Shown here in pieces: positions 10,639 to 29,593 of a stretch of DNA of 32,000 nt (positions are counted from its first letter, which is position 1; each line of letters starts with the position of its first letter). The translations under genes and the position numbers were made by a program. The DNA lies in assembly GCF_001545095.1 (NCBI RefSeq), contig NZ_CP013213.1:2370001-2402000 (forward strand), given 5' to 3'. The DNA is from Erysipelothrix larvae (lineage in GTDB: Bacteria; Bacillota_I; Bacilli_A; Erysipelotrichales; Erysipelotrichaceae). Under the pieces are notes generated by a model. The model was not told where the DNA came from and made no database searches. It saw nothing but the letters and a program-made list of their open reading frames with translations.

Positions 10639-11640
10639 TTACTTCTCCTTAATAGGGAACAATAAATCGAGTTGGAGGTCATTCATTGATCCATTTTGAG
10701 CATAATTATAAAAATTCAGTATTTCTTCAAATCCTTGTCCTGGAAGGGTTTCATTCGATTCCCATCGTGGTGAACCCCAATCATTGCTGTACTTATCCGA
10801 TGCATTCACCCATTCTCCCAACCGTCTCCAGTCTTCAAAATCCCACGCTCTTAGGACATGCGCTGCATAGAGACCTCCTTTGAATGTTCGTTTTATGAGC
10901 GGTTTTAATACCGTCATATCATCGGGTATTGACACCCACGTCTCATATGCCTTTGATGGAACCCCCACACCTTGAAACTCTGGTGAGCAATCAAATCCAA
11001 AGCTTCTCAGATCGGGTTTGATTTCAAGCAGATTATTTTCCGCTATGAACTTACGGACCATTTCCATTGATTTTCCTTCTGTATCTTCTCCAGTTGCTAA
11101 AGCTGCTGCAACAGTCATGGGTGGCAAATAGACAATACGGACATCATTATCTTGCATTTTCATCAGATCTTCGCTTGATTTGCCTAAATCTTCCATTGTT
11201 AAGGTTCCAATCGAGTTCTCTACTTGATTCTGTGAATAAGAAAGGGCATTAATAGAAAAAAATACACTCTCATCATCAAGAATATTTAAAGAAATATCAA
11301 CGGTATTGCTGATATCTTCGACAAACCGAACCAGAATCTCTTTTACAGTCGATAGTGCACTTATTTCTACATCCAATTCGTTAATGTTTTGTTGGAAGAT
11401 TTCCACAGTTTTTGATGCATCCTCATTTTCAAGAATCATACTGATTTGCTTAACTGGGATTCGTAGTTTGCGTAATATTATTATTTGTCTCAGCTTTTTT
11501 ATCGAAGTTTCATCATACACTCGATAAGCATACCCTTCTTTTCTATGGCTTTGAATTAATCCTGCCTTTTCATAGTACCTTAGCATTCGTGGTGATATTC
11601 CATATATTTTTGACACTTGACTTATCGTTTGTAGTTCCAT
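10639..11640 (-). CDS. MerR-family transcriptional regulator with C-terminal GyrI-like effector-binding domain
   Basis: MELQTISQVSKIYGISPRMLRYYEKAGLI is a MerR HTH, followed by a coiled-coil linker and a ~170-aa C-terminal domain of BmrR/GyrI-like type (VRIVYLPPMTVAA...GGLYAAHV). The start is set at ATG 11638-11640 (SD GAGAGG at 11647-11652) rather than the TTG at 11655. Confidence 0.85.
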   Translation of the reverse strand: MELQTISQVSKIYGISPRMLRYYEKAGLIQSHRKEGYAYRVYDETSIKKLRQIIILRKLRIPVKQISMILENEDASKTVEIFQQNINELDVEISALSTVKEILVRFVEDISNTVDISLNILDDESVFFSINALSYSQNQVENSIGTLTMEDLGKSSEDLMKMQDNDVRIVYLPPMTVAAALATGEDTEGKSMEMVRKFIAENNLLEIKPDLRSFGFDCSPEFQGVGVPSKAYETWVSIPDDMTVLKPLIKRTFKGGLYAAHVLRAWDFEDWRRLGEWVNASDKYSNDWGSPRWESNETLPGQGFEEILNFYNYAQNGSMNDLQLDLLFPIKEK

Positions 11641-11667
11641 GTTAATACCTCTCAATCTGATGTACCC

Positions 11668-11698
11668 ATTATAAAGTATGACACGGTGTTCTAGTCAA
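11668..11698 (-). promoter_or_regulatory. MerR-type promoter (19-bp spacer) of the merR-DUF6273 operon
   Basis: Minus-sense TTGACT-agaacaccgtgtcatactt-TATAAT. Both hexamers are near-consensus and separated by 19 nt, the over-long spacer characteristic of MerR-activated promoters. A short dyad ACAC-c-GTGT lies in the spacer. Confidence 0.6.
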
Positions 11699-11705
11699 TT
11701 AATTT

Positions 11706-11756
11706 ATAAAAAAAATCTATTTGAATCCGTTAATCAATAACTGCATCAAATAGATT
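11706..11756 (-). terminator. Rho-independent terminator after the fucO remnant / end of the glycosidase operon
   Basis: AATCTATTTGA (11714-11724) pairs with TCAAATAGATT (11746-11756): an 11-bp perfect stem with a 21-nt loop. In the minus sense it is followed by U8 (A-run 11708-11715, which overlaps the stem base by 2 nt). Confidence 0.7.
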
Positions 11757-11766
11757 GAATTAACAA

Positions 11767-11939
11767 TTACATTAAAGCCTTGTATAAACCAATGATTTCT
11801 TCAATGTTTGTTTCTCTTGGGTTCCCTGGTGTACATACATCTCTGAATGCATCTTCAGCAATCTTATCAAGATCCTCTGCCTTAACGCCTAATCCTGAGA
11901 TTGTTGCAGGAATTCCTACATCTTTGATTATTTTATCAA
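11767..11939 (-). pseudogene. 3'-terminal fragment (~57 codons) of a lactaldehyde reductase (fucO) allele
   Basis: It encodes DKIIKDVGIPATISGLGVKAEDLDKIAEDAFRDVCTPGNPRETNIEEIIGLYKALM*. The intact fucO C-terminus at 23617-23789 reads DKLSKDVGIPATISELGVKAEDLDKIAEDAFRDVCTPGNPRETNIEEIIGLYKALM*. No upstream fucO sequence is present; the M of the 74-aa track ORF is fortuitous. Confidence 0.88.
11768..11939. repeat. Direct repeat copy A (fucO 3' end)
   Basis: Aligns without gaps to 23618-23789 (offset 11850). I count 5 mismatches in the first 159 positions (11782, 11788, 11827, 11894, 11914) and 4 more in the last 13 positions. Similarity is lost beyond 11940. Confidence 0.9.
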
Positions 11940-14491
11940 CTTTTCCTAATGTAAAATTCATGTTCTCCAGGCCCAAGTAAATGTTCTTCATTATTCGGTA
12001 AAACTAACTTTGCATTCGCGTTAAAAGGAACTGTAATTTTGAACTGTAAATTTAGTTTATTATCATAGCCCCAATAACTTTTATATAACCCATATTCTGA
12101 TTCAAAACTGCTATCAATATACTGGAGAGATTGATGAGGATTTGGTCTTATGGTCATAAAAGTTTCTTCACTCATATCTGGATTAAATCCGCAGACTTGC
12201 TGATACATCCATTGTGCAATACTACCATATGCGTAATGGTTCATACTATTCATTTGTGTTCCACTTATTGAACCATCAGAATTTAAAGAATTCCACCTTT
12301 CCCATATGGTTGTAGCCCCCAGATTGACTTGATATAACCAGCTAGGATATCCTTCATTAAGCAGTAATTTGTATGCGAGATCATTTCTGCCAACACTTGT
12401 TAGTGCGGGGCAAATTAGATGAGTCCCAAGAAATCCAGTGTTTATGTATCCATTATTATCTTCAATTTCTTTTACAATCCCTGCTTTGAGTTTATGCTCT
12501 GATTTCTCAGGATAAAGTCCAGTGTGAATTAGAGTAGCAAATGCAGTTTGTGTTGGTTCAATGACTAAGCTTCCACTAGTATCAAAATAAAAATCAATAA
12601 AAGCTGATTTAATGTTGGCCGCTAGTTCTTTAAATTCATTTTCTCTTTCATCGCCTAACTCTCGCGCTGCTTTCCAACATAAATTTACTGACAGATAATA
12701 ATATGAAGACGCCAAAAATTGAATGTCTGTCTTTCCTATTGGATTGTTTATATTTCCATTATCCAAAGCCAACCAATCACCAAGATGCTTGTCATTTTGC
12801 CATAGATAAGAAACACTATTTTCATTAACCCTTTGAGTAACATAATCTACCCAACCTGTCATCATACTATAGTTTTCACTCAGCATTTTTTTATCTCCAT
12901 AAATCTCGTATAAAGTCCAAGGAAGAACAGTTGCCACATCACCCCAACCACACGCTCCATTTGTTATATAGAAGGGGTTTATCCCATCATGTTTAGGGAT
13001 TTTCGGCAAAGGAGAAAAGAATGGAATTGATCCATCAAGTAGTTTTTGTTCTTCTCTAAGACTTCGTAAGTAGTGTCTGAAGAAGGCTTGACTATTCATG
13101 TGAAAACATGCGGATTTTGCAAAAACTGTAACATCACCTGTCCAACCTACTCTTTCGTCTCTCTGCGGACAATCAGTTGGTATATCTAGAAAATTACATC
13201 TTTGTGATCGCATCGTATTTTCAATTAATTGATTGACTTTAAAGCTTGCAGTCTTTATAGTTCCTGTTTGCTCTATTTTTGACATTATGTGAAATCCAGT
13301 AAAGTCTATATTATCTATACTATCTGTGCTTTGAACTTTTGCATATCTGAACCCATAATATGTAAAATGAGGTCTTACTATCTCATTATTTCCATTAGAT
13401 ATATATGAGAACTCTGCTTTTGCACTTCTAAGATTATCATTATAAAATTCATTGTTTTGAAGTAATTCACCATACTGTACTTCTACTTTTTGGCCATGTT
13501 TTAGTTTGCCTTTTAACTCAATCCAACCGGTTATCATTTCGCCAAAATCTAATATCAAATACCCATCCTCATGCATAGTTTTTTTTATAGGTTTGATAGA
13601 TTTTTCTTTAATTACAGGTGGATTCGAACGTTCAATTAGCAGCTCCTTAGAATCATCGAACTCAATAACATTTATTGTCTTACAGTTTAGAGTTGTATTG
13701 ATGTGTTCACCTTTGTAAATTCCATTAGATAAAACATATGATTCCTTTGCTTCCCATGTCTTATCAGTGATAATTACATCTTCTTTCCCAGAGTGATATG
13801 TTACTCTTAATTCCGCAATGCACTTTTTAGTATCACCATATATATTTGGTCTGTTTTCATCAAATCCAAATTCACCTTTATACCATCCCTCACCTAATAT
13901 AATAGATAGAAGATTTTCACCTTCAATAAATTGATTCGTTACGTCATAGGTTTGATATTCATTAATCAAATCATATGAATGATACCCCGGTTGAAGATAT
14001 TCATCTCCTACCTTTGTATTATTCAAATACGCCTCATATAACCCAACACCATAAATATATAGTCTTGCATTTAATACATTGTCATCTATACAGAAATTTT
14101 TGAACAGTATTGGCATTCTATTTGAATCATCTACAACCCCTATCCATTTTGCTATCCAAGGATCTTTAATTTTACCTGTTTCAAACCAAGTAGTTTCACT
14201 CCATACCTCTTCTGAATCAGTTTTGATATACACTCGCCAATAATAACGAGTGTAAGCAGACAATGATAAATCTACATATATGTTTGGTAGTGGATAAGAC
14301 ACAAGTTTACCACTATCAAATACTGTATATTTCATTTCTGAATCTAAAGACACTTGTACCTGGGTGATCAAACTATTCTTTCCGATTGCACCCTTCACTT
14401 TCCAGGACAATTTTATGTACGGAAAATCATTTCCAAGTGGCCTATCAATTTGATTGGTTTTCAGACCATAGATTTTAATTCCTTGAGTCAT
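11936..14491 (-). CDS. Alpha-L-rhamnosidase, glycoside hydrolase family 78 (cytoplasmic)
   Basis: 851 aa with the N-terminal block ARLYIYGVGLYEAYLNNTKVGDEYLQPGYHSYD and the catalytic-domain motif DIPTDCPQRDERVGWTGD, both typical of bacterial GH78. No signal peptide. The start overlaps the GH3 stop (TAATG). Confidence 0.9.
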   Translation of the reverse strand: MTQGIKIYGLKTNQIDRPLGNDFPYIKLSWKVKGAIGKNSLITQVQVSLDSEMKYTVFDSGKLVSYPLPNIYVDLSLSAYTRYYWRVYIKTDSEEVWSETTWFETGKIKDPWIAKWIGVVDDSNRMPILFKNFCIDDNVLNARLYIYGVGLYEAYLNNTKVGDEYLQPGYHSYDLINEYQTYDVTNQFIEGENLLSIILGEGWYKGEFGFDENRPNIYGDTKKCIAELRVTYHSGKEDVIITDKTWEAKESYVLSNGIYKGEHINTTLNCKTINVIEFDDSKELLIERSNPPVIKEKSIKPIKKTMHEDGYLILDFGEMITGWIELKGKLKHGQKVEVQYGELLQNNEFYNDNLRSAKAEFSYISNGNNEIVRPHFTYYGFRYAKVQSTDSIDNIDFTGFHIMSKIEQTGTIKTASFKVNQLIENTMRSQRCNFLDIPTDCPQRDERVGWTGDVTVFAKSACFHMNSQAFFRHYLRSLREEQKLLDGSIPFFSPLPKIPKHDGINPFYITNGACGWGDVATVLPWTLYEIYGDKKMLSENYSMMTGWVDYVTQRVNENSVSYLWQNDKHLGDWLALDNGNINNPIGKTDIQFLASSYYYLSVNLCWKAARELGDERENEFKELAANIKSAFIDFYFDTSGSLVIEPTQTAFATLIHTGLYPEKSEHKLKAGIVKEIEDNNGYINTGFLGTHLICPALTSVGRNDLAYKLLLNEGYPSWLYQVNLGATTIWERWNSLNSDGSISGTQMNSMNHYAYGSIAQWMYQQVCGFNPDMSEETFMTIRPNPHQSLQYIDSSFESEYGLYKSYWGYDNKLNLQFKITVPFNANAKLVLPNNEEHLLGPGEHEFYIRKS

Positions 14492-16173
14492 TAGTATTTT
14501 AATTCCTTTCTACCACAGAAAGGATCAATAGGATTATTACCTTTAAAGTCACTATCTCCTAAGACTTTTTTTACAACCATCTCAATGACATAATCATTAT
14601 TTGAATATGCGTTTATATAGGTTTTTATCATGGGTACATCAAACAGATGGTAAGGGTTGGCAAGACTAATGAAAATCACAGGTATTTCACCTGCAAACCA
14701 AGGTATATTATTCCCCTGTCCCCAAAACGTGTACCAATTAATCCTATTGGTTGTCTTATTACTTGCATTCTCTACATTCCCCATGTAAATGACTAAATCA
14801 TATTTTTCTTTTAGGTCTCTCACATTATCGACACCATTATTAAAATTCTCTTTTTCATAAAGGATGACATTGAATCCCGACTTTTCTAATTCTAGTTTTG
14901 TTTTCTTAATTACCCTTTCATTAGAATCAAAATCACCAATTACTTCAAGTAATACATTCTTATATCTGTCAGAATTGATTGGCAATAAATTCTGTGTATC
15001 TTTCACTAAAGTAATTGATTGATCAGCAAGTTGAATTGCCCATTCAATATGTTTTTTACATTTTAGAACATTCAACCCTTCTATAGGTGGTATCAATGTG
15101 CCATTAGTTTGCTTTTCATTCAATTTCATACTTGCTTTTAAAGCTAAGATTCTTCTGTTAGCAGCTAATAATCTTTCTTCAGATAATAATCCATTTTTAT
15201 ATCCTGATAGCATAAATTTGTAATCTTCTTCCAAGTCTTTATTAAAAAGGAACATGTCGCATCCGTTTTCTATAGCTGTCGGCACTGAAATGTTTCGTGG
15301 CATTGCAGAAGCAAAGCCAACCATAGGCGTAGCGTCAGAAATGATTAAACCATTGAACTTAAGTTTATCCCTCAATAGATTGTTTAGTAATTCTTTTGAC
15401 AATGAAGCGGGAATAATTTTGTCTTTATCTTCTTTGTTGAAATAGGTCTGGTATGCAGGAAGGGCAATATGTCCAGCCATGATAGTTTTAGCACCTGATT
15501 TAATCATTCCCTCATACACTATTCCAAATGTATTATCCCATTCTTGAATAGATAAATGATTAACTGAAGTTAGCAAGTGCTGATCTCTTTCATCAATACC
15601 ATCTCCAGGAAAATGTTTGACAGACACTTCAACATTATTTTCATGAGCTGCTCGCATATATTCTTTAGCATAGTCTAAGACAACTTTGGGGTCGTTTCCA
15701 TAAGTTCGAACATTTGTAATCGGATTTCTAAACTCAAAGTCAATATCTACCACCGGAGCAAACGCCCAGTTTATCCCTAAAGACGCTGCTTCTATACTAG
15801 AAACTTGACCCAAACGGTAAGCATATTTCTTATCTCCTGCTGCAGCACACGCCATTTGCTTTCCAAAAGGGGTTCCATCAATTGCTGCCCCATCTCCCCC
15901 TGCTTCTATATTAGAAGGTATTAATAAAGGTATCTTACTGTGCTTTTGAACGAAAGAGAATGTGTTGTACATTTCCTCACCAACTCCGTCTCTAAAAAAT
16001 AGTCCTCCAATATGAAAATTCAACAATGAATTTAGATACTCAGGATTTGTGGAATATCCTATAGGACAAAATAATTGCCCTATCTTTTCCTCAAGCGTCA
16101 TTTTATTCAAGGTGTTTTCTACCCACTCAACTTCTTTATTTGTTAAATTAAATGGTTCCATTTTTAAATTCAT
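14491..16173 (-). CDS. Glycoside hydrolase family 3, NagZ/YbbD-like subfamily (beta-hexosaminidase/beta-glucosidase or phosphorylase)
   Basis: 560 aa. KHFPGDGIDERDQH has the same spacing as B. subtilis NagZ KHFPGHGDTDVDSH (Asp-His dyad). The nucleophile context is FNGLIISDATPM. It has two domains and no signal peptide. SD AGGAGA is present. Confidence 0.85.
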   Translation of the reverse strand: MNLKMEPFNLTNKEVEWVENTLNKMTLEEKIGQLFCPIGYSTNPEYLNSLLNFHIGGLFFRDGVGEEMYNTFSFVQKHSKIPLLIPSNIEAGGDGAAIDGTPFGKQMACAAAGDKKYAYRLGQVSSIEAASLGINWAFAPVVDIDFEFRNPITNVRTYGNDPKVVLDYAKEYMRAAHENNVEVSVKHFPGDGIDERDQHLLTSVNHLSIQEWDNTFGIVYEGMIKSGAKTIMAGHIALPAYQTYFNKEDKDKIIPASLSKELLNNLLRDKLKFNGLIISDATPMVGFASAMPRNISVPTAIENGCDMFLFNKDLEEDYKFMLSGYKNGLLSEERLLAANRRILALKASMKLNEKQTNGTLIPPIEGLNVLKCKKHIEWAIQLADQSITLVKDTQNLLPINSDRYKNVLLEVIGDFDSNERVIKKTKLELEKSGFNVILYEKENFNNGVDNVRDLKEKYDLVIYMGNVENASNKTTNRINWYTFWGQGNNIPWFAGEIPVIFISLANPYHLFDVPMIKTYINAYSNNDYVIEMVVKKVLGDSDFKGNNPIDPFCGRKELKY

Positions 16174-16226
16174 TATTATTCTCCTTATATATGCATTCAG
16201 CCAAAGAATTTATCCTTGGCCGAATA

Positions 16227-16865
16227 TTAAAACAATATTTTTAATATATCTTTAATTGAACTCAGTTTGTAAGTAGTTTTACAATATGAAGCTGCTTCTC
16301 CGATTCCTGCGCAGTCAATCCCGCCATCAAGTGCAGCATCTATTCCAGCTACAGCATCTTCTACAACAAGACATTCGGAAACATTTACCCCTAATCGTTG
16401 TGCAGCTTTTGTAAACACTTCTGGATTTGGCTTAGAATAAGTAATATCTGTCCCATCACATATAACACTAAAGCTATTCATTATCCCTAATTGCTTCAAG
16501 ATAAACTTAGCATTTTTACTCGACGAACCAATTGCTAACATAACTCCTTTAGCACTCAAGCTCTCTATGGTTTCGCTAACTTCTGGAGATAAATTTGATT
16601 TGTCAATTTGCTTTAGTAACTCAATGTAAATCTTATTTTTTTTATCAGCAATTAATTCTTTTTCTTCAAGAGAGAGCACAACTTCATTTTTTTTAAGTAT
16701 AATATCGAGACTTTCCATTCTACTAATACCTCGTAATCTATTGTTGATACTCTCATCAAAGTGTACATCCAAATCATCAGCAATTTGCTTCCATGCAATA
16801 AAATGGTATTCATCTGTAGAACAAATTACTCCATCTAGATCAAATATTACAGCTTTATATTTCAT
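16227..16865 (-). CDS. pgmB: Beta-phosphoglucomutase (HAD superfamily)
   Basis: 212 aa. MKYKAVIFDLDGVICSTDEYHFIAWKQIA, LRGISRMESL, IGSSSKNA and VVEDAVAGIDAALDGG track Lactococcus lactis beta-PGM (FDLDGVITDT..YHFRAW, LKGVSREDSL, ASASKNG, GLEDSQAGIQAIKDSG). The start overlaps the upstream permease stop by 11 nt. Confidence 0.85.
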   Translation of the reverse strand: MKYKAVIFDLDGVICSTDEYHFIAWKQIADDLDVHFDESINNRLRGISRMESLDIILKKNEVVLSLEEKELIADKKNKIYIELLKQIDKSNLSPEVSETIESLSAKGVMLAIGSSSKNAKFILKQLGIMNSFSVICDGTDITYSKPNPEVFTKAAQRLGVNVSECLVVEDAVAGIDAALDGGIDCAGIGEAASYCKTTYKLSSIKDILKILF

Positions 16866-17844
16866 TATTCCCTCTCTTCTTGATTAGATTTATTATTCTT
16901 CCTATTGCTTTCTCATTGTTAAGATAAATTAAAAAAGCTACCAATATTATTGCAGTTACTATTTGTTGAATGGATGAATCAACATTTACTCTTGCATACA
17001 TAAGTGAAATAAATGCTGTAGTCACTGCTCCCATTAAGTAACCAATATTTGCATTTGTAAATCTTCTTATATACCCCCCAATAAACATCGGTAAAAAAGC
17101 TGTAAACATCACGCCAATCGATGCAAAGTTTAGTGCCATTTGAATGGTTCCTGTGTGCGTGGCACTAATAAACCCCACAACCCCCATCAACGAGCCAGAA
17201 ATAACATAGCAAACTACAGCATTTTTCACTTCTCTTATTCCTGTAGTTACAGCTACTTTTTGCCCTGTCTGCAATGCTCTGTAAGAATATCCAAATTCTG
17301 TATAATCAAATACAAGAGTAACAAGAAGTAAACTAATTGATATTATTACCAAGTAGTTTATCACATTAGGAAAACTGGTCAGCTCAATGTTAGTAACAAA
17401 AGATACTCCAAAGCCATTGGTGATGACAAATGCAATACCTTCATATAGTAGTGCAACTCCAAGAGATATAATTATCGGCGGTAGTTTTACCACTACATAG
17501 GTCAGCCCTGAAATTAAACCTAATATTGCTCCAACAAATACTGATATAATCAACATTGTCCAGACTGATAAATTGGCATTCAAAGCAATAGTAGCGCTTA
17601 TAACCGATGATAACAATGCAACAGAACCTATAGAAAAATCGAATCTTCCAGAATCTAAATTAATGGAGAGCGCTATTGTTGTTAACATTACAGATGCCGT
17701 TGATCTAAAAAACACAATATAATTTCCTGCTGTTTCAAACAATTTAACCCCTTGAAATACGCAGATAAGATTAACAGCAATAAATGTTGTTAATGGTATA
17801 CTTGTTGTTCCTATAAATCTATTAAAAAGGTTTTTTTTATTCAT
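16855..17844 (-). CDS. ABC transporter permease, CUT2 (RbsC-like) type
   Basis: 329 aa, about 9-10 hydrophobic helices, with DSGRFDFSIGSVALL equivalent to the RbsC GGIDLSVGS motif. SD GGAGAG is present. Confidence 0.8.
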   Translation of the reverse strand: MNKKNLFNRFIGTTSIPLTTFIAVNLICVFQGVKLFETAGNYIVFFRSTASVMLTTIALSINLDSGRFDFSIGSVALLSSVISATIALNANLSVWTMLIISVFVGAILGLISGLTYVVVKLPPIIISLGVALLYEGIAFVITNGFGVSFVTNIELTSFPNVINYLVIISISLLLVTLVFDYTEFGYSYRALQTGQKVAVTTGIREVKNAVVCYVISGSLMGVVGFISATHTGTIQMALNFASIGVMFTAFLPMFIGGYIRRFTNANIGYLMGAVTTAFISLMYARVNVDSSIQQIVTAIILVAFLIYLNNEKAIGRIINLIKKRGNNEI

Positions 17845-17876
17845 TGTCTCTCCGATCTTGTTTTTTTATAAAAACT

Positions 17877-17911
17877 AATCTTTATCCCCTTTGTTTTTGG
17901 GGATAAAGATT
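17877..17911 (-). promoter_or_regulatory. Intra-operon stem-loop between the binding-protein and permease genes
   Basis: AATCTTTATCCCC (17877-17889) pairs with GGGGATAAAGATT (17899-17911): a 13-bp perfect stem with a 9-nt loop. In the minus sense it is followed by AGUUUUUAUAAAAAAA, then SD GGAGAG and the ATG at 17844. Confidence 0.6.
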
Positions 17912-17928
17912 ATTTGTGATTTTACTTT

Positions 17929-19116
17929 TTACTGTGTCAAGTTTCTGATTTGATCGTAACTATACTGAGATACAAAATCTGAGAACTCATCGTAACTTGC
18001 ATTTAATAACAAACTAAGCATTTCTTTTGAATATGCAGGCGCCTCAACTGAGCTATCTAGTGCGTATAATCTTTCAAATTCTTCAAATGAGGTCGCAATC
18101 CAATATCCTTGACTCAGGGCTAATGCTTCATTATTATCAGTTCTAACAGGATTCCCTTGAACTGCTCGCAACGTTGCGATAAATATAGGACCAATACTTG
18201 CTGAGAACTTTCCAGCCAAATAATCAAGAACCCCATTTTCCATTGCCTCACCATATGCTGAAGCAAATGCATCTACACTGGCAATCTTTACATTTGATCC
18301 TTGTACTGCTGCACCAAAGAAATCAGAACCGTTTCCTACAGCTAGTAATACCTCTAGTCCAGGTAATTGCGCCATTTGCGTACACATTGCAAACCAAGCA
18401 TCATCCATATCATAACCGCCTACATATCCTAGTATTTCTACATCGCCTACTGCCCCTGTATCTATCGACCCATCAGCATAAATTTGACCCACAATACCTT
18501 CCACTGTTGCCTGACCTTTATAGTTTGCTCCCTCACCCCCTGCTTTTACCATTGCATATAACATTCCTGCAGCTCTGTAAATATGCATATCTGTGTAGTA
18601 CGGTATCGCTCCACCAAAAATTGCAAAATTACTTTTACCTTGGTCTAGATAATGATTCGCCATGTCATAACCAGTTTCAAACTCTCGTTCTAATGATGGA
18701 CCTATCGCTCCAACATAATATTCATAATTCTTAAATTTATCATATTCTTCGTCCGTCAATGTTCCTGTAGCAACTGCGTAGAATATACCTTGCTTTTCTG
18801 CTAGCTCAATCTGCGCCGAACGATCAAATGACGAAAACGATATTACTGCCTTTACATTGTTTGTTATAAATGTTTCAAACGCAGATATTTCTTGTGCTGA
18901 ATCGACTAACTCATCTGAGTAAATGAACTCAACATTAAATTGATTTTGAATATATTCTGTAAAATAATTTCTGAACGCAAGTGCTTCTGCTGATGTTGTG
19001 TCAGATACTAAAACTCCAATTCTTACTGTATCCGCCTCGTTAGAGTCGCCACATCCTGTTAGTAGCAAACTAACACTAACTAGAAGACACATAATTAACT
19101 TTATATTTTTTTTCAC
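17929..19116 (-). CDS. ABC transporter substrate-binding lipoprotein (type I periplasmic-binding fold)
   Basis: 395 aa. (M)KKNIKLIMCLLVSVSLLLTGCGDS is a lipoprotein signal with lipobox LTGC. GTG start at 19114-19116 with SD GGAGGA 6 nt upstream. The gene sits between the two permease genes. Confidence 0.7.
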   Translation of the reverse strand: MKKNIKLIMCLLVSVSLLLTGCGDSNEADTVRIGVLVSDTTSAEALAFRNYFTEYIQNQFNVEFIYSDELVDSAQEISAFETFITNNVKAVISFSSFDRSAQIELAEKQGIFYAVATGTLTDEEYDKFKNYEYYVGAIGPSLEREFETGYDMANHYLDQGKSNFAIFGGAIPYYTDMHIYRAAGMLYAMVKAGGEGANYKGQATVEGIVGQIYADGSIDTGAVGDVEILGYVGGYDMDDAWFAMCTQMAQLPGLEVLLAVGNGSDFFGAAVQGSNVKIASVDAFASAYGEAMENGVLDYLAGKFSASIGPIFIATLRAVQGNPVRTDNNEALALSQGYWIATSFEEFERLYALDSSVEAPAYSKEMLSLLLNASYDEFSDFVSQYSYDQIRNLTQ

Positions 19117-19150
19117 CTTTTTTCCTCCTTATATCTTAGGTGTATGATTT

Positions 19151-20122
19151 TTATCTCGGAAGTATTTTTCTTCTTTGATTACTCGTTGCAAGATAAACAA
19201 CCAGAATAAATATTATTGCTTTTACAATTTGATTTATTCCAGAATTCATATTAAACATAACCATTATCTGACTTAGAAAAGTCATAGAAAACGATCCTAC
19301 TATTGCTGAATATATTTTACTTCTTGCACCTCCTGAAATAGGCATCCCCCCGAATACTATCGCAATAATCACATCCATCCCAACACTTGATGCACTATTC
19401 CTAGTTAATGTTGGGGCGTACACTATTAATAGAAATGCTCCAATTCCAACTCCTAATCCTGATAATGCAAACGAAATAATAGATATTTTTTTACTTGATA
19501 TACCTGTTAACCTTGCACAGATAGGATTTCCTCCGATAAACTTTTGCATTCGCCCTAATCGCGTAAAATTGAATAAAAACGTACAAAGTCCTGCGAAAAC
19601 CATGAGCGTTGCTATCTTAAACCATTCAGTGTTTAGATTTTGCACCGAAGAAGCAGAGATTGACACGGTTGAGCCAGTTCCATTTACACTAATCAATAAC
19701 AAAACAATTGCATTTAGGACACTTAGCATTGCTATTGTTGTAACGAAAACAGGGAGATTAAATATTGAAGCCAAAACTGAATTGAATAATGCAATAGAAA
19801 CTGCGACAAGAATACATACAAGAAACATTAGTAGAATACTATTTGTTGCATTAAATGTAATTGCACCTAATAAAGCACTAACCGTTACAGAAGCACCTAA
19901 ACTTATGTCGAAAGAACCTAAAGAATATATAAATATAGCACCAGTAGCAACGATTGCTACTACAACAGATTGATTTAGGATTGCCTTAAGCCCAAATAGT
20001 ACATTAATATTTCTTAAACTTCCTATAACGAAAAACATCATAGATAATGCAATTAACCCAAATATAGGTGCGAAGTTCATAATTCTATTTTTTATATTTA
20101 TTTTTTTCATCTTTTTCTCCAC
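19151..20122 (-). CDS. ABC transporter permease, CUT2 (RbsC-like) type
   Basis: 323 aa, polytopic, with YSLGSFDISLGASVTV as the RbsC-like motif. It directly abuts the ATPase gene stop. Confidence 0.8.
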   Translation of the reverse strand: MEKKMKKINIKNRIMNFAPIFGLIALSMMFFVIGSLRNINVLFGLKAILNQSVVVAIVATGAIFIYSLGSFDISLGASVTVSALLGAITFNATNSILLMFLVCILVAVSIALFNSVLASIFNLPVFVTTIAMLSVLNAIVLLLISVNGTGSTVSISASSVQNLNTEWFKIATLMVFAGLCTFLFNFTRLGRMQKFIGGNPICARLTGISSKKISIISFALSGLGVGIGAFLLIVYAPTLTRNSASSVGMDVIIAIVFGGMPISGGARSKIYSAIVGSFSMTFLSQIMVMFNMNSGINQIVKAIIFILVVYLATSNQRRKILPR

Positions 20123-21643
20123 CTATATCATGTAATGAATAATATCCGATTCGCTAAGATTCTCATTTCTCATTAATTCTTTCGATATTTTCCCATCTTT
20201 CATCACTATTAACCTATCAACCATGCCAATTAACTCTGTTAATTCTTCAGAAATAATAACAATCGTTTTTCCTTCTTTTTTCATTTCATAAATTAATCGA
20301 TACATAGCTTGCTTAACTCCAACATCTACCCCTCTAGTAGGGCAGTCAAGAATTAGAATTTCACTTCCTCTACCGATCCATTTCCCAAATACTACTTTTT
20401 GCTTATTACCTCCAGATAGTGCTGAAACGCGTTGATTCATACTTGAGCATTTAATACTTAATAAATTGATTTGACTTTTTACGTATTCTATTTCTCGCTT
20501 TGATGTTATAACGCCAAATTGATTCACCATTAAGTCTAGTCCTGCAATAGCAATGTTATCTCTTATACTTGCATCAAGATTCAACGATTCAACATCTCTA
20601 TCTTTTGAAACATAGCCAATATTGCTTTTTATCGCATCACGTTCCGTTTTTATAGTTTTTCCATTTGCTATAACTTTCCCTTTATCAGGGGATAATGACC
20701 CAAACAATATTTTCCCCAATTCATGCATTCCACAGTGTGATAACCCACCAACTCCTAATATTTCTCCACTATGAATTCTTAAGTTTATATCCCTCACATT
20801 ATTGGAATAACAAACATTCTTTAGTTCAACAACAACATCACTTGAAGTTGTACCATCATAATCAGTACGGTAATAACTTCCTTCTAACTCTCTACCAATC
20901 ATTGCTGTTTTTATCTTCTCTTCATCAAAATCCTCTTTTTTAAAATGTGTTATTATTTTCCCATCCCTTAATACGGTTAATGAATCACAAACTTCTGTGA
21001 TTTCATCTAAATCATGAGAGATAAATATAACTGATTTGTTATTATTTCTCATATCTTCTATAAGCTTATAAATTATCTCTCGTCCCCCTTGAGATAACGC
21101 AGTTGTCGTTTCATCAATAATTAGTAAATCTGGTCTTTTGCTCATTACTTTTGCGATTTCTACTAACTTTCTATCTTGAATACTTAACATGCCGGTCATT
21201 ATAGAAGCATCAATATGTGATGCATTAATTTCATCTAAAGCCTTTTGCGCACTGCTTATCATTTTTTTTCGATTGATTAGCCCAAACTTATTTAATCTGT
21301 TCCTAATCTCTTTAAACTCACCACTTTCTGCCAAATATATATTTTCCGCAACACTAATCCCTGGTACAGTTCCACTTTCTTGAACTATCATACCTACACC
21401 ACATTCTAACGCTTCAATCATTGAATTCGGATTCCAATTATTGCTATTAAATAACATGGATCCTTTATCAGCATTTTGAATTCCTGATAGAATTGAAGTA
21501 ACGGTTGACTTCCCTGACCCATTCTCTCCAACAAGACCTAGTACTTCTCCTCTATTTACCGAGAAGCTCACGCTATCTAATGCTACAGTTGTGTCGAAAT
21601 TTTTACATATGTTTTTAACTTCTACTATAATATCTTTGTTCAT
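20123..21643 (-). CDS. Sugar ABC transporter ATP-binding protein with fused tandem NBDs (RbsA/MglA-like)
   Basis: 506 aa. NBD1 has Walker A GENGSGKST and Walker B LLIIDETT. NBD2 has a degenerate Walker A GVGGLSHCGMHELG, signature LSGGNKQKV and ILILDCPTRGVD. This architecture is typical of CUT2 importers. Confidence 0.9.
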   Translation of the reverse strand: MNKDIIVEVKNICKNFDTTVALDSVSFSVNRGEVLGLVGENGSGKSTVTSILSGIQNADKGSMLFNSNNWNPNSMIEALECGVGMIVQESGTVPGISVAENIYLAESGEFKEIRNRLNKFGLINRKKMISSAQKALDEINASHIDASIMTGMLSIQDRKLVEIAKVMSKRPDLLIIDETTTALSQGGREIIYKLIEDMRNNNKSVIFISHDLDEITEVCDSLTVLRDGKIITHFKKEDFDEEKIKTAMIGRELEGSYYRTDYDGTTSSDVVVELKNVCYSNNVRDINLRIHSGEILGVGGLSHCGMHELGKILFGSLSPDKGKVIANGKTIKTERDAIKSNIGYVSKDRDVESLNLDASIRDNIAIAGLDLMVNQFGVITSKREIEYVKSQINLLSIKCSSMNQRVSALSGGNKQKVVFGKWIGRGSEILILDCPTRGVDVGVKQAMYRLIYEMKKEGKTIVIISEELTELIGMVDRLIVMKDGKISKELMRNENLSESDIIHYMI

Positions 21644-21666
21644 TTCATATCCTTCCTATCGATGAC

Positions 21667-21680
21667 AGTAATCGCTTTCA
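21667..21680 (-). promoter_or_regulatory. Candidate CcpA catabolite-responsive element (cre) in the operon leader
   Basis: Minus-sense TGAAAGCGATTACT matches TGWNANCGNTNWCA at 13 of 14 positions. It lies about +46..+59 relative to the predicted TSS. Confidence 0.4.
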
Positions 21681-21732
21681 GACAGATTTAAAAAATTTTA
21701 TTGAATCTGATTAATGTAATTTGTATATATTA

Positions 21733-21761
21733 ATTATATTTTTAATTATATGAGATTCCAA
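21733..21761 (-). promoter_or_regulatory. Candidate sigma-A promoter of the ABC/pgmB/GH3/GH78 operon
   Basis: Minus-sense TTGGAA-17 nt-TATAAT. Confidence 0.55.
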
Positions 21762-21821
21762 TGTTCTATTTTGGTCTATTAAATTGACGTTAATTAATCT
21801 AAAGTTTAAATTTAAGACTAT

Positions 21822-21850
21822 TTGACTATCTTTAATTGATATTTTATAAT
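21822..21850 (+). promoter_or_regulatory. Candidate sigma-A promoter of the AraC-family regulator gene
   Basis: TTGACT (21822-21827)-17 nt-TATAAT (21845-21850). SD AGGAGA is at 21884-21889 and the ATG at 21895. Confidence 0.6.
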
Positions 21851-21894
21851 ATTCTTGAAATTGCTTTCTTTTTTTAGTAATTCAGGAGAACAAT

Positions 21895-22941
21895 ATGAAC
21901 TTTGATACACTAGTAAATAACTTATATCACTATAACTCTGACGAAGAGTTTTATAAGCAGTATTATTATGCAAAACAACAACCGTATTCGCTCGATAAAT
22001 TTTTAACTGAGTTGGATTTTGATTTTGTAAAAAGAAACCATTTGATAATACCTGAGATTGCTTCAACGATACCCCCTCGTTACGAGGATTCGTTTTTCTT
22101 TGGAAAAAATCCAAATGCTTCTATCCTTGTTTTACGCCATAACAGATTTAGTCCTGCCATTGAACATAGCCATACATTTTTTGAGCTACTTTACGTTTAT
22201 GATGGGACATGTATTCATACTATTGATAATCAAACTGTGATACTTAAAAAAGGGGATATATGTATTATCCCTCCTGGGGTAACTCATTCAGTTTCAGTCT
22301 TCGATGATAGTATTATTTTCAATTGTATTATAAGGAAAGCTACACTTCATAACGTATTCTTCAATTTTTTAAGAAACACAAATATTCTTTCTGCTTTTTT
22401 TCTAAACAATATTTACTCAGAAAAAGGAAGCACCTACATTGTATTTCATACCGGGAATGATAATGAAATCCGCAATAGTTTTCTATATATGTATTGGGAA
22501 ACAGTAAATGAATCACTTTATTGGGATCAAATGATTGGTTTTACACTAATGTTAACTTTTGGTATTTTAATTCGTAATTATGACAAAAGTGTAGAATTAC
22601 CTTCGCCAGCAAACAAAAGTGATATCAAACGATATGAAATTTTGCAATATATGCAAGACAATTTTGCAAGTATTTCACTTGATGATCTGGCATCCTATTT
22701 TCATTACACTCCTGAGTATATGTCGAAGTTAATCAAGAAAGTTTTTGGAAAAAACTACACATACATACTTCAAGACATTAGGTTAGAAAAAGCGAAGATA
22801 TTACTATATGATACAAATCTTTCTATCTCTAACATTTCAAACCAAATTGGATACGAAAACACAGAGAGCTTTATACGGTCATTCAAAAAGAAGAATCATA
22901 TGACCCCAACAGAATATAGGAAGAGTGGATACACACTCTAG
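21895..22941 (+). CDS. AraC-family transcriptional regulator (cupin sensor + HTH), divergent from the glycosidase/ABC operon
   Basis: 348 aa. The N-terminal cupin is HSHTFFELLYVYDGTCIHTIDNQTVILKKGDICIIPPGVTHS. The C-terminal AraC HTH pair is ISLDDLASYFHYTPEYMSKLIKKVFG...ISNISNQIGYENTESFIRSFKKKNHMTPTEYRK. Confidence 0.85.
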   Translation: MNFDTLVNNLYHYNSDEEFYKQYYYAKQQPYSLDKFLTELDFDFVKRNHLIIPEIASTIPPRYEDSFFFGKNPNASILVLRHNRFSPAIEHSHTFFELLYVYDGTCIHTIDNQTVILKKGDICIIPPGVTHSVSVFDDSIIFNCIIRKATLHNVFFNFLRNTNILSAFFLNNIYSEKGSTYIVFHTGNDNEIRNSFLYMYWETVNESLYWDQMIGFTLMLTFGILIRNYDKSVELPSPANKSDIKRYEILQYMQDNFASISLDDLASYFHYTPEYMSKLIKKVFGKNYTYILQDIRLEKAKILLYDTNLSISNISNQIGYENTESFIRSFKKKNHMTPTEYRKSGYTL

Positions 22942-22956
22942 TCACTCTAAAAATTG

Positions 22957-22989
22957 AAATTATGCTAGATGAAATTAAGCATAATTTTT
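22957..22989 (+). terminator. Rho-independent terminator of the AraC-family gene
   Basis: AAATTATGCT (22957-22966) pairs with AGCATAATTT (22978-22987): a 10-bp perfect stem running into TTTTT. Confidence 0.65.
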
Positions 22990-23527
22990 CCTCTAGAGCC
23001 TTAAGAATCATAGTAATCCACTTTTTATCCCCTAGCTATCTTAATATCTAGTCTGTTAGTAATAAATTTAATACGCATCTAGTCTTCTGTGATTATCTAT
23101 TTTCCTATTTTAACATTTATAACAACCCTTCTTTTTGCAAAACGATAAGTAATTTCAAGTTACATTCACAATAAATGAGAAACTTTATATGTACGCAGTA
23201 GCCGAGTTTCTATATACTATTTTCCTAAATAAATTAGACAATAAAGATACTATTAATCCAACTTATTGAATCGCTGTCCTTTGTCTCCTAAATTTGCCAA
23301 CTGCCCAAAAATATTATTGATATGAGAAATCATCAGCTTCATTTTAAAATCTCATTGTTGTTTTTGGTATGAATTCCAAATAGTTCCTAAGTCGTACTCA
23401 GTAATTCGTATATTCATAAATCTTCAAGTAGCAACGATAGATCTAGCCGTTGTGATACCTAGCACACTTTAAATTATTGGTTCTTAAAAAAGATATATAC
23501 CCACAAAACAGCATAGAAAACACATTT

Positions 23528-23554
23528 AAAAAAGACACATATTTTATATGTGCC
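23528..23554 (-). terminator. Rho-independent terminator of fucO / rha operon
   Basis: Minus-sense GGCACATAU-aaa-AUAUGUGUC (one A.C mismatch) followed by U6 (A-run 23528-23533 on plus). It lies ~60 nt after the fucO stop. Confidence 0.6.
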
Positions 23555-23616
23555 TAAATAAATACTTATTCATTATTTTATGGTGCGGTCTAGAGGATCT
23601 ACTCTGTAAGCATATA

Positions 23617-24768
23617 CTACATTAAAGCCTTATATAAGCCAATGATTTCTTCAATGTTTGTTTCTCTTGGGTTCCCGGGTGTACATACATCTCTGAATGC
23701 ATCTTCAGCAATCTTATCAAGATCCTCTGCCTTAACGCCTAATTCTGAGATTGTTGCAGGAATGCCTACATCTTTGCTGAGTTTATCAATTGCAGCACAT
23801 GCTGCATCACGTGCTTCTTCAAGACTCATTGCATCGGCTCCTGGTACATTAAGTGCAATTGCAATATCACGATATTTCTCGCCCGTGTAGTCCTTATTAT
23901 ACTTCATAACAGATGGAAGGAGTGCAGCGCATGCAACACCATGTGGTACATTGTACCACGCTGAAAGTGGATGAGCCATACCGTGAACAAGCCCAAGACC
24001 TACATTAGAGAATCCCATACCCGCGATATATTGCCCCAATGCCATCTTTTCACGCGCTTCTTGGCATCCATCTACCGAGTCTCTTAATGATGCACCAATA
24101 ATCTCGATTGCCTTTATATGAAGCATGTCTGTCATTTCCCATGCGCCTTGTGTAATGTATCCTTCAATTGCATGTGTCATTGCATCCATACCCGTTGCAG
24201 CACACAGTGCTTTTGGCATGCCCATCATCATATCGCTGTCTACAAATGCCACAATCGGAATATCGTGAGGATCTACGCATACAAACTTACGATTGTTTGC
24301 TTTATCAGTAATTACATAGTTAATGGTTACTTCTGCGGCTGTCCCTGATGTTGTAGGAACTGCAAGAATTGGTAAACATGGATTTTTAGTATCCGCAATA
24401 CCTTCTAAACTAATGACATCTGAAAACTCTGGATTTTTCACAATGATTGCGATTGCTTTTGCGGTGTCAATCGGTGATCCACCACCAATTGCTACAATAC
24501 AATCTCCTTGGTTTGCTTCTACGAATGCAACACCATCTTGTACATTTTCAATGGTTGGATTTGGAACAATCCCATCATAAGTTACATAGCTAATGCCTTT
24601 TTCATCGAGATGTTTTGTAACCATCTCAACAACTCCAAACTTAACCAAGTCTGCATCTGTTACAATAACAGGTTTCTTAAACCCTCTCGCAAGGATTTCT
24701 GTTGCGACATTCGCAACTGCACCTTTTCCAAAATAAGACGTCTCATTCAATATCATTCTGTTTGCCAT
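23617..24768 (-). CDS. fucO: L-lactaldehyde reductase (1,2-propanediol oxidoreductase), iron-containing ADH family
   Basis: 383 aa, colinear with E. coli FucO: MANRMILNETSYFGKGAV, AIGGGSPIDTAKAI, TTSGTAAEVTINYVITD, FVCVDPHDIP, GLGLVHGMAHPL and DVCTPGNPRE. Confidence 0.92.
   Translation of the reverse strand: MANRMILNETSYFGKGAVANVATEILARGFKKPVIVTDADLVKFGVVEMVTKHLDEKGISYVTYDGIVPNPTIENVQDGVAFVEANQGDCIVAIGGGSPIDTAKAIAIIVKNPEFSDVISLEGIADTKNPCLPILAVPTTSGTAAEVTINYVITDKANNRKFVCVDPHDIPIVAFVDSDMMMGMPKALCAATGMDAMTHAIEGYITQGAWEMTDMLHIKAIEIIGASLRDSVDGCQEAREKMALGQYIAGMGFSNVGLGLVHGMAHPLSAWYNVPHGVACAALLPSVMKYNKDYTGEKYRDIAIALNVPGADAMSLEEARDAACAAIDKLSKDVGIPATISELGVKAEDLDKIAEDAFRDVCTPGNPRETNIEEIIGLYKALM
23618..23789. 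repeat. Direct repeat copy B (3' end of the intact fucO)
   Basis: Partner of 11768-11939; see copy A. Confidence 0.9.
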
Positions 24769-24969
24769 ATGTTTCCTCCTTTTCGAAACTTAAGTAAGCA
24801 GTGGGTATAAACCCTGAATACCATTCATAAGTTAATTTAATCACAAACTTATGCTTTTTCTATCTGTTTTTTTTATACTGTTTTAGAAAAAACCATGCAT
24901 TGACTCTATATTCTCACTCATATATCCTACAATTTTTGATTTTTTTCATCGTTCGCTCACAAATTATCC

Positions 24970-25794
24970 TTAGTCAAGATACTCCGTTCTTGGTTTCACA
25001 CCAAAGCCGCATGCTAAATCACGCAGATTTTGATCGGTGATTGTTTGGCGAATTCCGCCTTGTGCTTGAACATAGGTGTAAATTTGTGCTGCCTTCTCTG
25101 CCGTTTCAATAAGACCAAACACTTCATCCATGGTGTTCCCTGCACCATAAACCCCATGTTGTGGCCACATTACAAGTCGTGTTTCTTTCATTTTTGCTGC
25201 GGTTGCTTCACCTATTTCAGTAGTTCCTGGAACCATCCATGGAATAATGGATACGCCTTCCGGGAAGACTACTAAGCATTCTGTACACATTTGCCACAAA
25301 GTACGAGTAAACAAACGTTCGTCAAGTTCATGCGTAAAAGTCATTGCAAGTAAATGACTTGCATGGTTATGCATAATGACGCGATTTTCTGGATCAATGG
25401 ATAAACGTGCGATATGACTCATAAAGTGACTTGGTAGTTCACTTGTCGGATTAGCATCATTGAGAAGCCCCCATAAAAGCTCCAGTGTTTTCCCATCACT
25501 TCCAACCCGTACAATCCCTAAATTGGCTTCAGGATCATCCGCAACATTTTTAAAATATTTTCCTGACCCTGTTACAATGAATATTTTCCCAACAAGTTCG
25601 CTTGCATCAAAAATCATTGGAATTTGTCTTAGTACTGTATTTACATCTAAATAATGCGAAATTTCTTCTTCTAACAAGAGGTATGAAATATTCCCGCCAT
25701 TACGTTCATCCCAACCTAAGCGATACAAATTGGAAGTTGTGGCTACCATTTCTTTTACAAATTGAGCATTTAGTATATTTTCTTTTGTCATCAT
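24970..25794 (-). CDS. rhaD: Rhamnulose-1-phosphate aldolase
   Basis: 274 aa, the same length as E. coli RhaD and colinear with it: [64 protein letters not shown] and ETAEKAAQ. Confidence 0.93.
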
Positions 25795-25808
25795 TAATCT
25801 CCTTGCCT

Positions 25809-27056
25809 TTATCGTTTCAACAACACGTTTGTTTCATAATCTTGTACTTCTTTGAGCCAATCTAGCCCCACAGAAACACCTTGAATTTCACAATAGTAGT
25901 TCCACACATCAGCATATGGGAAATCTTTGAGTTCTTCTGTAAGTGCCAGACGTGTTGTGAAGTCTCCATTAAGTTCTGCACATTTCAACGTGTCAATTGG
26001 TTCTAACATCGCTTTAAGAACTGCTTTAATAGTATTACGCGTACCAATCACCCACGCTGCAACACGATTAATGGTTGCATCAAAGAAGTCAAGTCCGATA
26101 TGTGTTTTATCCAATAGGTTATTTCTCACGAGTTCTTTCCCAATTTCTTGAAGTTCATCATCCATAATTACAACATGATCTGAATCCCAACGGACTGGAC
26201 GGGACACATGGAGTAAGATGCCCTCACTAAAGAGTCCAATTGATGATAACTTGTTTGAGATGACTTCAGTTGGGTGGAAATGTCCTGCATCCAAACATAC
26301 GAGCTTATTTCGTGTTAATCCATATCCCATGTAGAATTCATGAGAACCCACAGTATACGCTTCAGCACCAATTCCAAAGAGTTTGCTTTCAACTGCATCC
26401 AATGTATAGCGTTTATCCAATGGTTCCGCAAACACTTCATCCAACGCTTCCATGAGTCGTTTACGTGGAGAAAGGCGGTCGATCGGATTATCTTTATAGC
26501 CATCAGGCACCCAGAAATTATTAATACTTACTTGACCCAATTCTTTTCCAAAGTACTCCGCAATTTTTCGAGAACGCTTTCCATGTTCAATCCAGAAATC
26601 ACGAACTTCAGGGTCACTTGATGCTAGGGTGAATCCATCTTTATACATAGGGTGTGAGAAGAATGTTGGGTTGAAGTCTAATCCTAATCCTTGTTCTTTC
26701 GCCCATTTTACCCACGTCTCATAATGTCTTGGTTCAATTTCATTGAGATCAACCGTCTCATCTGTATCTAAATAGATTGCGTGAAGATTAAGCTTGTGAT
26801 TTCCTGGTATATACGATAACGCTTTTTCTAAGTCTTGACGCAATTCATTAGGATTTGTCGCTTTACCAGGATGATTTCCTGTGACACTGATACCTCCAGA
26901 TAATGCATCATCACTTAAAAACCCTTGCACATCATCCCCTTGCCATACATGCATGGATACCTTTACTTTCTTTAACTCCTCTAGTACTGCATCTGTATCA
27001 ACGCCAATCTGTGCATATTTTTCTTTTGCAGCTAAATATCGTTCTTTTTTATTCAT
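25809..27056 (-). CDS. rhaA: L-rhamnose isomerase
   Basis: 415 aa, colinear with E. coli RhaA: [80 protein letters not shown] and [21 protein letters not shown]. Confidence 0.96.
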
Positions 27057-28528: not shown

Positions 28529-28582
28529 ACCATCACTCCTTTCACATTGTTGTTATTTCCTACACCTTAATATTAATTGATA

Positions 28583-28596
28583 TGTTACCGTTTTCC
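28583..28596. promoter_or_regulatory. Candidate cre in the rhaB / AraC-regulator divergent intergenic region
   Basis: Plus-sense TGTTACCGTTTTCC (minus-sense GGAAAACGGTAACA) matches TGWNANCGNTNWCA at 13 of 14 positions in either orientation. Confidence 0.3.
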
Positions 28597-28652
28597 ATTA
28601 AAGAATTTTGGTGTATAATTGCACTATCTTGGTAAGATAAAAGGAGGCTTGT

Positions 28653-29522: not shown

Positions 29523-29550
29523 TTTATTACGTTTTAGTATTTCATCACAC

Positions 29551-29593
29551 AAAAAGGTGCAGTCAACAGTTATTTGCGACTACACCTTTTTTT
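29551..29593. terminator. Bidirectional terminator between the convergent AraC gene and anti-sigma gene
   Basis: AAGGTGCAGTC (29554-29564) pairs with GACTACACCTT (29578-29588): an 11-bp stem with one mismatch, an A5 run before and a T7 run after. Confidence 0.7.

Follow-up and report, generated by a model that had tools for sequence, protein, structure and literature searches.

How can a complete catabolic cassette from a distant bacterial lineage become attached to a resident metabolic gene without a recombinase gene of its own, leaving the host gene intact? This question is raised by a 32,000-nucleotide stretch of the genome of Erysipelothrix larvae (NCBI RefSeq assembly GCF_001545095.1, contig NZ_CP013213.1, positions 2,370,001 to 2,402,000 of the forward strand), which was analysed at its full length and is called the window in the following. 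It contains a rhamnoside cassette placed between two direct copies of the 3' end of fucO, the gene for lactaldehyde reductase, one copy belonging to the intact gene and the other being an orphan fragment 11.85 kb away. An earlier note, made from the letters of the sequence, had pointed out this arrangement. We report here that a sister strain carries the same locus without the cassette and that the end of its fucO is a reciprocal mosaic of the two copies. With a probability of roughly 60%, we consider that the cassette was acquired horizontally and was joined to the chromosome by one Campbell-type crossover in the native fucO 3' end.

The existence of a repeat-flanked cassette is confirmed. 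The two copies, 11768-11939 (copy A) and 23618-23789 (copy B), form gap-free direct repeats of 95% identity at an offset of 11850 bp, and a fixed-offset comparison, a MAFFT alignment and a repeat search agreed on the geometry that the earlier note had given. If the third base of the stop codon is counted, the copies span 11767-11939 and 23617-23789, i.e., 172-173 bp. The runner-up among the direct repeats of the 32-kb window measures 41 nt at 71% identity, so the 172-bp match, the sole long repeat in the window, is not a product of chance. Copy B constitutes the final 173 nt of an intact fucO (23617..24768, minus strand), a complete open reading frame (ORF) of 383 amino acids (aa) encoding a lactaldehyde reductase/Fe-alcohol dehydrogenase (ADH) with the domains PF00465 and PF25137. 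Copy A (11767..11939, minus strand) is a displaced fragment of 56-57 codons plus TAA without a start codon, which adjoins the gene of a GH78 alpha-L-rhamnosidase and starts at its stop codon, located inside the repeat at 11936-11938; both assignments had been proposed before and are borne out by the sequence. The same is true for the five mismatches counted previously in the first 159 aligned bases, which are silent at 11782 (Tyr), 11788 (Gly), 11827 (Pro) and 11914 (Gly) and exchange Glu in copy B for Gly in copy A at 11894. Three more mismatches lie beyond the counted stretch at 11927, 11929 and 11931, where copy B encodes Leu-Ser and copy A Ile-Ile. The stop codons are unlike, TAA at 11767-11769 in copy A and TAG at 23617-23619 in copy B, and the sequences 3' of the two copies are unrelated, each with a hairpin and a T-run. 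The hairpin after copy A (11706..11756, minus strand; -17.5 kcal/mol, z = -4.1) is the original fucO terminator by its fold and its conservation in the sister strain, where it sits after fucO; in the window it follows the GH78 gene and the orphan fragment. The hairpin after copy B (23533-23555, minus strand) now serves fucO and lies in a non-coding spacer of 675 bp (22942..23616; GC 0.29; no ORF above 48 codons in any frame). This spacer gave no match to Pfam with its six-frame segments, to Rfam or to the plasmid collection and no tblastx match to any fetched locus, and no pseudogene remnant was seen in it, so that neither a decayed integrase nor a decayed neighbouring gene is visible. The Rfam search of the whole window also returned no match.

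The decisive comparison is provided by the sister strain (L080). The 90%-identity clusters of fucO, merR, DUF6273, tdk, a gene for a 449-aa protein (g449) and a sigma factor gene each have a second member, located on Logan contig SRR6161627; the locus on this 97-kb contig was found via the cluster look-up and the identical tdk protein. It is ~99.2% identical to the window across both flanks and reads sigma factor, g449, 275 bp of unique DNA, fucO, terminator, merR, followed by the genes of the window's right flank. The cassette is absent, and fucO-terminator-merR is the very empty site that the earlier note had predicted. In a three-way alignment, the fucO end of L080 has the states of copy B at 11894, 11914 and 11927-31 and the states of copy A at 11827, 11788 and 11782, in the stop codon and in everything downstream. 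Since the L080 end is thus copy B on its 5' side and copy A on its 3' side, one crossover within the intervening core of 66 bp (11828..11893, equivalent to 23678-23743 in copy B), which is identical in copy A, copy B and the sister strain, links the filled and the empty form. The insert is accordingly flanked on both sides by a direct duplication, and the polymorphisms of the two duplicates are split reciprocally relative to the unoccupied allele. This is the pattern of a Campbell integration, and the topology of a single crossover within the repeat, which had been suspected from the window, is matched by a natural allele.

The distribution of the mismatches carries information on the origin of the two copies. 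The earlier note had interpreted them as divergence between functional alleles, and this interpretation holds for the 3' edge of the repeat and fails for the 5' edge of copy A. Comparison of the final 20 codons of copy B with L080 (or copy A) at the 3' edge gives differences at 3 of ~12 synonymous sites and in the stop codon (TAA/TAG), with no replacements; the proportion of synonymous differences (pS) between L080 and the window is 0.24 in these 20 fucO codons compared with 0.037 in the other 362 codons (Fisher p = 0.008, the statistics of the repeat standing on 4-5 differences per segment) and is 0.013 for ten flanking genes pooled. Moreover, the homology of copies A and B ends exactly at the stop codon. 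Silent differences together with this end point therefore fit functional orthologous alleles from different contexts rather than an arbitrary duplication in situ. At the 5' edge, copy A contains Ile where Leu is invariant in 80 of 80 orthologues, Ile where just Ser, Gly or Ala occur, and Gly where 77 of the 80 orthologues have Glu, and copy A alone departs from copy B, L080 and the orthologues at these positions, which is the pattern of a non-functional sequence.

Such changes (L->I, S->I and E->G) at conserved positions would also be produced if the fucO end had been duplicated in place, or if a second ADH paralogue had decayed, with divergence following on the spot. We regard this explanation as highly improbable. 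Of the copy A-specific changes, all 5 fall within the first 46 bp and none in the following 126 bp (p = 0.0012, weakening to p = 0.04 if the mismatches at 11927-11931 belong to the junction), and this clustering therefore indicates two segments with different histories, as expected from a crossover but not from uniform decay in situ. The all-silent nature of the four differences at the 3' edge and the end of the homology at the stop codon are likewise hard to reconcile with a local duplication. A second full ADH gene, of which the fragment could be the remainder and which the earlier note had named as the sign of paralogue decay, was looked for and none was found; the sequence of the fragment is in L080 the end of the sole fucO. 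In the two homologous cassettes described below, no ADH gene follows GH78; in one of them, L081, AraC, rhaB and rhaA come next.

The other end of copy A is the joint to the GH78 gene. This joint coincides with a microhomology of 8 bp, TTGATAAA (11932..11939, minus strand), and the GH78 stop codon TGA (11936-11938) lies inside this shared TTGATAAA of the repeat, being supplied out of frame by the fucO-derived DNA. The final ~5 residues of the GH78 protein differ from those of its homologues. Since the protein end is odd and its stop codon comes from fucO-derived sequence read in another frame, the joint is illegitimate. One homologous junction and one microhomology junction that replaces the last few GH78 codons can also be explained by homology-facilitated illegitimate recombination of linear foreign DNA, with fucO as the homologous anchor, the illegitimate event at TTGATAAA and no circle at any stage. 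Such a process has been put forward to explain displaced orphan 3' modules of type VI secretion system (T6SS) and Rhs loci (PMC5361080). For the window it is unlikely: because the illegitimate joint is upstream of the homologous crossover, 172 bp of recipient DNA are duplicated and not deleted, and a second sister chromosome would be needed to obtain the observed topology from a single linear donor. Enterococcus-like hosts are not known to be naturally transformable, which we count against a linear donor as well.

The DNA enclosed by the repeats is one intact foreign cassette of clostridial type. In the direction of the minus strand, rhaB-rhaA-rhaD (with rhaR divergent) and fucO are followed by the 675-bp spacer, an AraC gene on the opposite strand and the cassette operon with ATPase, permease, binding protein, permease, HAD, GH3 and GH78 genes, then by the fucO fragment and the terminator, and 3' of this terminator by merR, DUF6273, rpmE, tdk, prfA and further housekeeping genes. 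The annotation rests on Pfam and on comparison with two Lachnospiraceae-like loci, L081 (from GCA_031555615.1) and L082, in which the cassette genes recur in identical order with 55-69% aa identity to those of the window, where all are of full length. The GH78 alpha-L-rhamnosidase (11936..14491, minus strand) comprises 851 aa and all five domains, and the GH3 glycosidase (14491..16173, minus strand), 560 aa in length, is 69% identical to the syntenic genes of both loci. They are preceded in the operon by a HAD-family hydrolase or phosphatase-type protein of 212 aa (16227..16865, minus strand) and by a four-gene ABC transporter (16855..21643, minus strand; PF00005, PF02653; syntenic in L081 and L082 at 61-69% identity). 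This transporter consists of an ATPase with two ABC domains (20123-21643; PF00005), a permease (19151-20122), a binding protein (SBP; 17929-19116; 395 aa; PF13407 below the Pfam cut-off) and a second permease (16855-17844). The AraC-family regulator of the cassette (21895..22941, plus strand) is divergent from the transporter operon and 64-65% identical to its L081/L082 counterpart. A complete set of GH78 domains, a partner glycosidase, a transporter, a regulator and conserved synteny are therewith present, as expected of a GH78 utilisation cassette. By inspection, neither the GH78 nor the GH3 N-terminus has an evident signal peptide, which points to uptake of rhamnosides by the ABC transporter and to intracellular release of L-rhamnose. 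Judged by domain content and neighbourhood, the cassette would free L-rhamnose for the adjacent RhaA, RhaB, RhaD and FucO. The SBP of the window is, at 395 aa, shorter than its counterparts in the homologous loci (435-439 aa), ~40 alignment columns being absent. A conserved 78-aa ORF lies between the AraC and ATPase genes in L081/L082, and tblastn found no trace of it in the window, where the corresponding intergenic region (21644-21894, 251 bp) has 21% GC and stops in all frames.

The foreign origin of the cargo is apparent from its codon usage, its GC content and its distant phylogenetic affinity. The correlation of relative synonymous codon usage (RSCU) with the housekeeping genes of the window is 0.58 for the cargo and 0.93 for rha/fucO, and the cargo genes have a GC content of 0.31-0.34 (with the SBP gene highest at 0.38) compared with 0.38-0.42 in fucO, the rha genes and the housekeeping genes, in agreement with the AT-richness that had been noticed by eye. 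The best non-self homologues of GH78 are 56% identical, and the named matches are Lachnospiraceae, Blautia and Roseburia metagenome-assembled genomes. In a collection of ~15 billion proteins, 12 of the 13 cargo and rha proteins were found, and their 90%-identity clusters hold this genome alone; the 13th, a permease, gave no match with the start codon that was tried. An apparent second member of the SBP cluster (P0135) is an unrelated marine fragment of 48 aa and was discarded as spurious.

No recombinase, integrase or transposase domain was detected by Pfam in the cargo ORFs or in the six-frame segments of the spacer, as had been stated for the module before, and the repeat search gave no inverted repeats of at least 30 nt. 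The features of a transposon or of an insertion sequence (IS) composite, namely a transposase, terminal inverted repeats and a short target-site duplication, are thus missing, the duplication being 172 bp long. Because no recombinase gene is found in cis, the crossover is most likely the work of host homologous recombination. The module might instead be the remnant of a site-specific element, i.e., a prophage, an integrative and conjugative element or an integrative and mobilizable element, which targeted the fucO 3' end and whose integrase was lost or acts in trans, leaving it mobilisable in cis. The topology and dimensions are indeed those of icd/icdC in E. coli K-12 (PMC13626634), and a replacement 3' end, a displaced fragment at the far end and an unoccupied site, here in L080, are all present. 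Nevertheless, we judge such an origin improbable: neither a recombinase gene nor a remnant of one was found in the 11.85 kb, nor were phage or conjugation genes found in the module, the cargo occupies the whole stretch between AraC and GH78 just as in the homologous loci that are not mobile, and the crossover is placed centrally in the repeat, flanked on either side by fucO-like sequence, rather than at the 5' edge of the repeat.

A single Campbell-type event would account for the filled locus as follows. The incoming cassette DNA would have carried a ~172-bp 3' segment of a related but diverged fucO, ~5% different from the resident one, which was linked at one end to a spacer and a terminator of its own and was fused at the other to the GH78 end via the illegitimate TTGATAAA junction. 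One reciprocal crossover with the resident fucO inside the core at 11828-11893 would then leave fucO intact, with its last ~60 bp, its stop codon and its terminator all of foreign origin. The original fucO 3' end would be displaced downstream by 11.85 kb together with its terminator, at which the cassette operon now ends. The agent of such a Campbell-type event would be host homologous recombination on a circular intermediate, and we infer that the incoming DNA was circular and the crossover RecA-dependent. The reverse recombination between the same repeats would result in precise loss of the cassette.

A gain of the cassette in the window lineage and its loss in L080 are nearly equally likely. 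Gain is favoured because of the foreign codon usage, the uniqueness of the cargo and the smaller number of events, and loss in L080 is plausible because its rha genes are missing and its fucO contains a nonsense codon. On the latter account, which concerns the direction only and which we consider a serious possibility somewhat short of even odds, the filled form is ancestral, and L080 became empty by RecA-mediated deletion between the repeats or by receiving a cassette-free allele during the loss of rhamnose metabolism. L080 lacks rhaR-rhaBAD, although the synteny of these genes with fucO is conserved across Enterococcus, and codon 141 of its fucO is changed from TCA to TAA (L080 6984-6986; window ~24346-24348), leaving ORFs of 140 aa and 211 aa. 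A crossover in the 66-bp core, the longest identical stretch, yields the L080 mosaic exactly, and all cargo genes are intact, so that long retention by selection is possible. However, an ancestral filled form takes one event more than a gain and still needs the same explanation for the origin of the repeat, the codon usage of the cargo is still foreign and the cargo is found in no other genome according to the 90% clusters. The history of the L080 rha region, moreover, is not one of simple deletions. In L080, 275 bp of unrelated DNA (L080 6205-6480) take the place of window positions 24861-29678 (4.8 kb); the left break falls exactly on the g449 stop codon (TAA versus TGA) and the right break lies in a patchy divergent stretch ~95 bp upstream of the fucO ATG. 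This difference is best described as a replacement and not a clean deletion, and because unrelated DNA stands in for the rha genes and the left break falls on the g449 stop, recombination may have brought in a replacement allele. Inactivation of the L080 fucO looks recent, since 9 of the 12 other differences from the window in codons 1-362 are synonymous, and it would fit a loss of the rhamnose pathway.

The synonymous divergence between L080 and the window is patchy between 4411 and 9480: tdk-prfA-prmC-sua5 show 1 synonymous difference in 3.2 kb, whereas pS is ~0.02 in glyA, upp, g449 and DUF6273 and 0.07 in g188, which suggests a recombining population with mosaic ancestry. A single imported tract behind both indels was considered and is not relied on, as the pS values of fucO and merR (0.037 and 0.028) are just ~2.5 times the local background of 0.013 and those of individual genes vary between 0 and 0.07.

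Several points weigh against a horizontal gain by Campbell-type crossover. The collections searched contain just two genomes of the species, which is too few to give a direction, and an L080 without rhaR-rhaBAD and with a disrupted fucO fits a lineage that is losing its rhamnose pathway. The empty site is known from a short-read Logan assembly and is taken at assembly level. A donor with the 3' edge of copy B and the spacer was not found in the plasmid collection, the metagenome scans or the fetched loci: the plasmid collection matched neither module nor spacer, a degenerate pattern of the fucO core was unmatched in the metagenome scans and a merR search gave nothing above 59% identity. Among GTDB species representatives the closest fucO is 82% identical at the aa level and none has the cassette or merR downstream, and neither these nor the metagenomes yielded an outgroup near enough to settle the direction. 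The topology is the same as that of an integrase-mediated insertion into the 3' end of a gene, as for e14 in icd, and a recombinase acting in trans from beyond the 32-kb window is possible. Finally, the small numbers of differences and the sensitivity to the junction mismatches given above limit the statistics of the repeat. A bolder extension, which we hold to be rather doubtful, is that the fucO 3' segment is a portable handle and the cassette an integrase-free mobile module, whose circle exits from and re-enters related fucO genes by host recombination and restores the gene each time. The part of the handle near the cargo would then travel with the cassette and decay, the far part would be repeatedly exchanged with functional alleles, and the observed gradient, from non-functional-type changes beside GH78 to purely silent differences at the far edge, would therefore follow.

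Upstream of fucO, the minus strand carries rhaD, rhaA and rhaB and the plus strand rhaR, all for rhamnose catabolism (24970..29522; by Pfam and Enterococcus synteny), and in Enterococcus and its relatives rhaR-rhaBAD-fucO is conserved as a unit. The fucO protein is 64-82% identical to those of 79 orthologous loci, mostly of Enterococcus and many beside rhaR-rhaBAD; compared with Enterococcus-type orthologues, fucO, rhaA and rhaD are mostly 65-84% and rhaB and rhaR ~55-65% identical at the aa level. As the codon usage fits the housekeeping genes, with the RSCU correlation given above, we treat the unit as native. On the left, an extracytoplasmic function-type sigma factor of 161 aa and the 449-aa protein g449, which has no Pfam domain, overlap by 8 nt (29679-31506, minus strand); the pair is conserved in L080 and bounds the variable region on this side, and g449 is possibly an anti-sigma partner. 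The conserved right flank, ~99% identical in L080, begins with the promoter and gene of a merR-family regulator (10639..11698, minus strand; 333 aa, counted from the ATG at 11640). The merR protein ends in a C-terminal Cass2 effector-binding domain, and its promoter (11698-11668, minus strand) reads TTGACT-19 nt-TATAAT with the dyad ACACcGTGT inside the spacer; this 19-nt spacer is of the over-long type of MerR-regulated promoters, and a scan restricted to spacers of 16-18 nt missed it. The only IS trace lies 8.5 kb from the module, where a 115-aa ORF (2898-3245, plus strand; E = 7e-6) matches part of the IS66-family transposase domain and so is a remnant, and the surrounding 1 kb (2500-3500) has the peak divergence from the sister strain with 28 differences per kb.

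The locus illustrates that a catabolic cassette of a distant lineage can be attached or removed without a dedicated recombinase via the short 3' end of a metabolic gene. The host gene is kept intact, and the new genes adjoin the pathway that consumes their predicted product, with rhamnose passing to RhaA/B/D and FucO. For annotation, orphan 3' fragments near intact paralogues can flag the boundaries of islands even where no integrase is present. Furthermore, filled and empty forms both exist in nature with the crossover confined to 66 bp, which makes excision, circle and re-integration testable by polymerase chain reaction.

Compared with known systems, the locus resembles Campbell integration in the duplication flanking the insert, the complete and the truncated copy and the reciprocal polymorphisms, and every feature that can be tested by sequence agrees. 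Most known cases of Campbell integration come from laboratory constructs and from plasmids that integrate. Unlike the laboratory cases, the window would represent a natural event with just 172 bp of ~95% identical homology and with a postulated circle. The closest analogue is e14 in icd, where cargo likewise lies between an intact gene with a replaced end and a displaced 3' fragment in direct orientation. In MG1655, icd and icdC share 165 bp at 92.7% identity with 12 mismatches, 10 of which are silent, and their homology ends at the stop codon (PMC13626634). In e14 and phage 21, the element supplies the last ~165 bp of icd, the displaced icdC lies at the far end and excision generates a chimeric functional gene (PMC13626634). 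However, e14 carries intE, xisE and phage genes, whereas the module of the window has no recombinase, a catabolic cargo and a crossover in mid-repeat. C-terminal displacement in Rhs, contact-dependent inhibition (CDI) and T6SS loci is similar in that an incoming 3' part enters via a conserved upstream handle and pushes the old 3' part downstream without an integrase, the orphan 3' modules of Rhs and T6SS loci being attributed to homology-facilitated illegitimate recombination (PMC5361080). That process normally deletes recipient DNA, whereas in the window recipient DNA is duplicated; and while Rhs, CDI and T6SS loci diversify toxin tips under conflict, the fucO product is unchanged here and the payload is an operon for sugar utilisation. 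With regard to the cargo, the window shares with L081 the AraC/ABC/HAD/GH3/GH78 order at 55-69% aa identity and the position of the cassette beside rhaB-rhaA; it departs from L081 and L082 in the missing 78-aa ORF, in its Enterococcus-like rha/fucO host genes and in the fucO repeats as flanks. Taken together, the mechanism is of a known kind; the unusual features are its tidiness, the lack of an integrase and a natural pair of filled and empty alleles that fixes the crossover to 66 bp.

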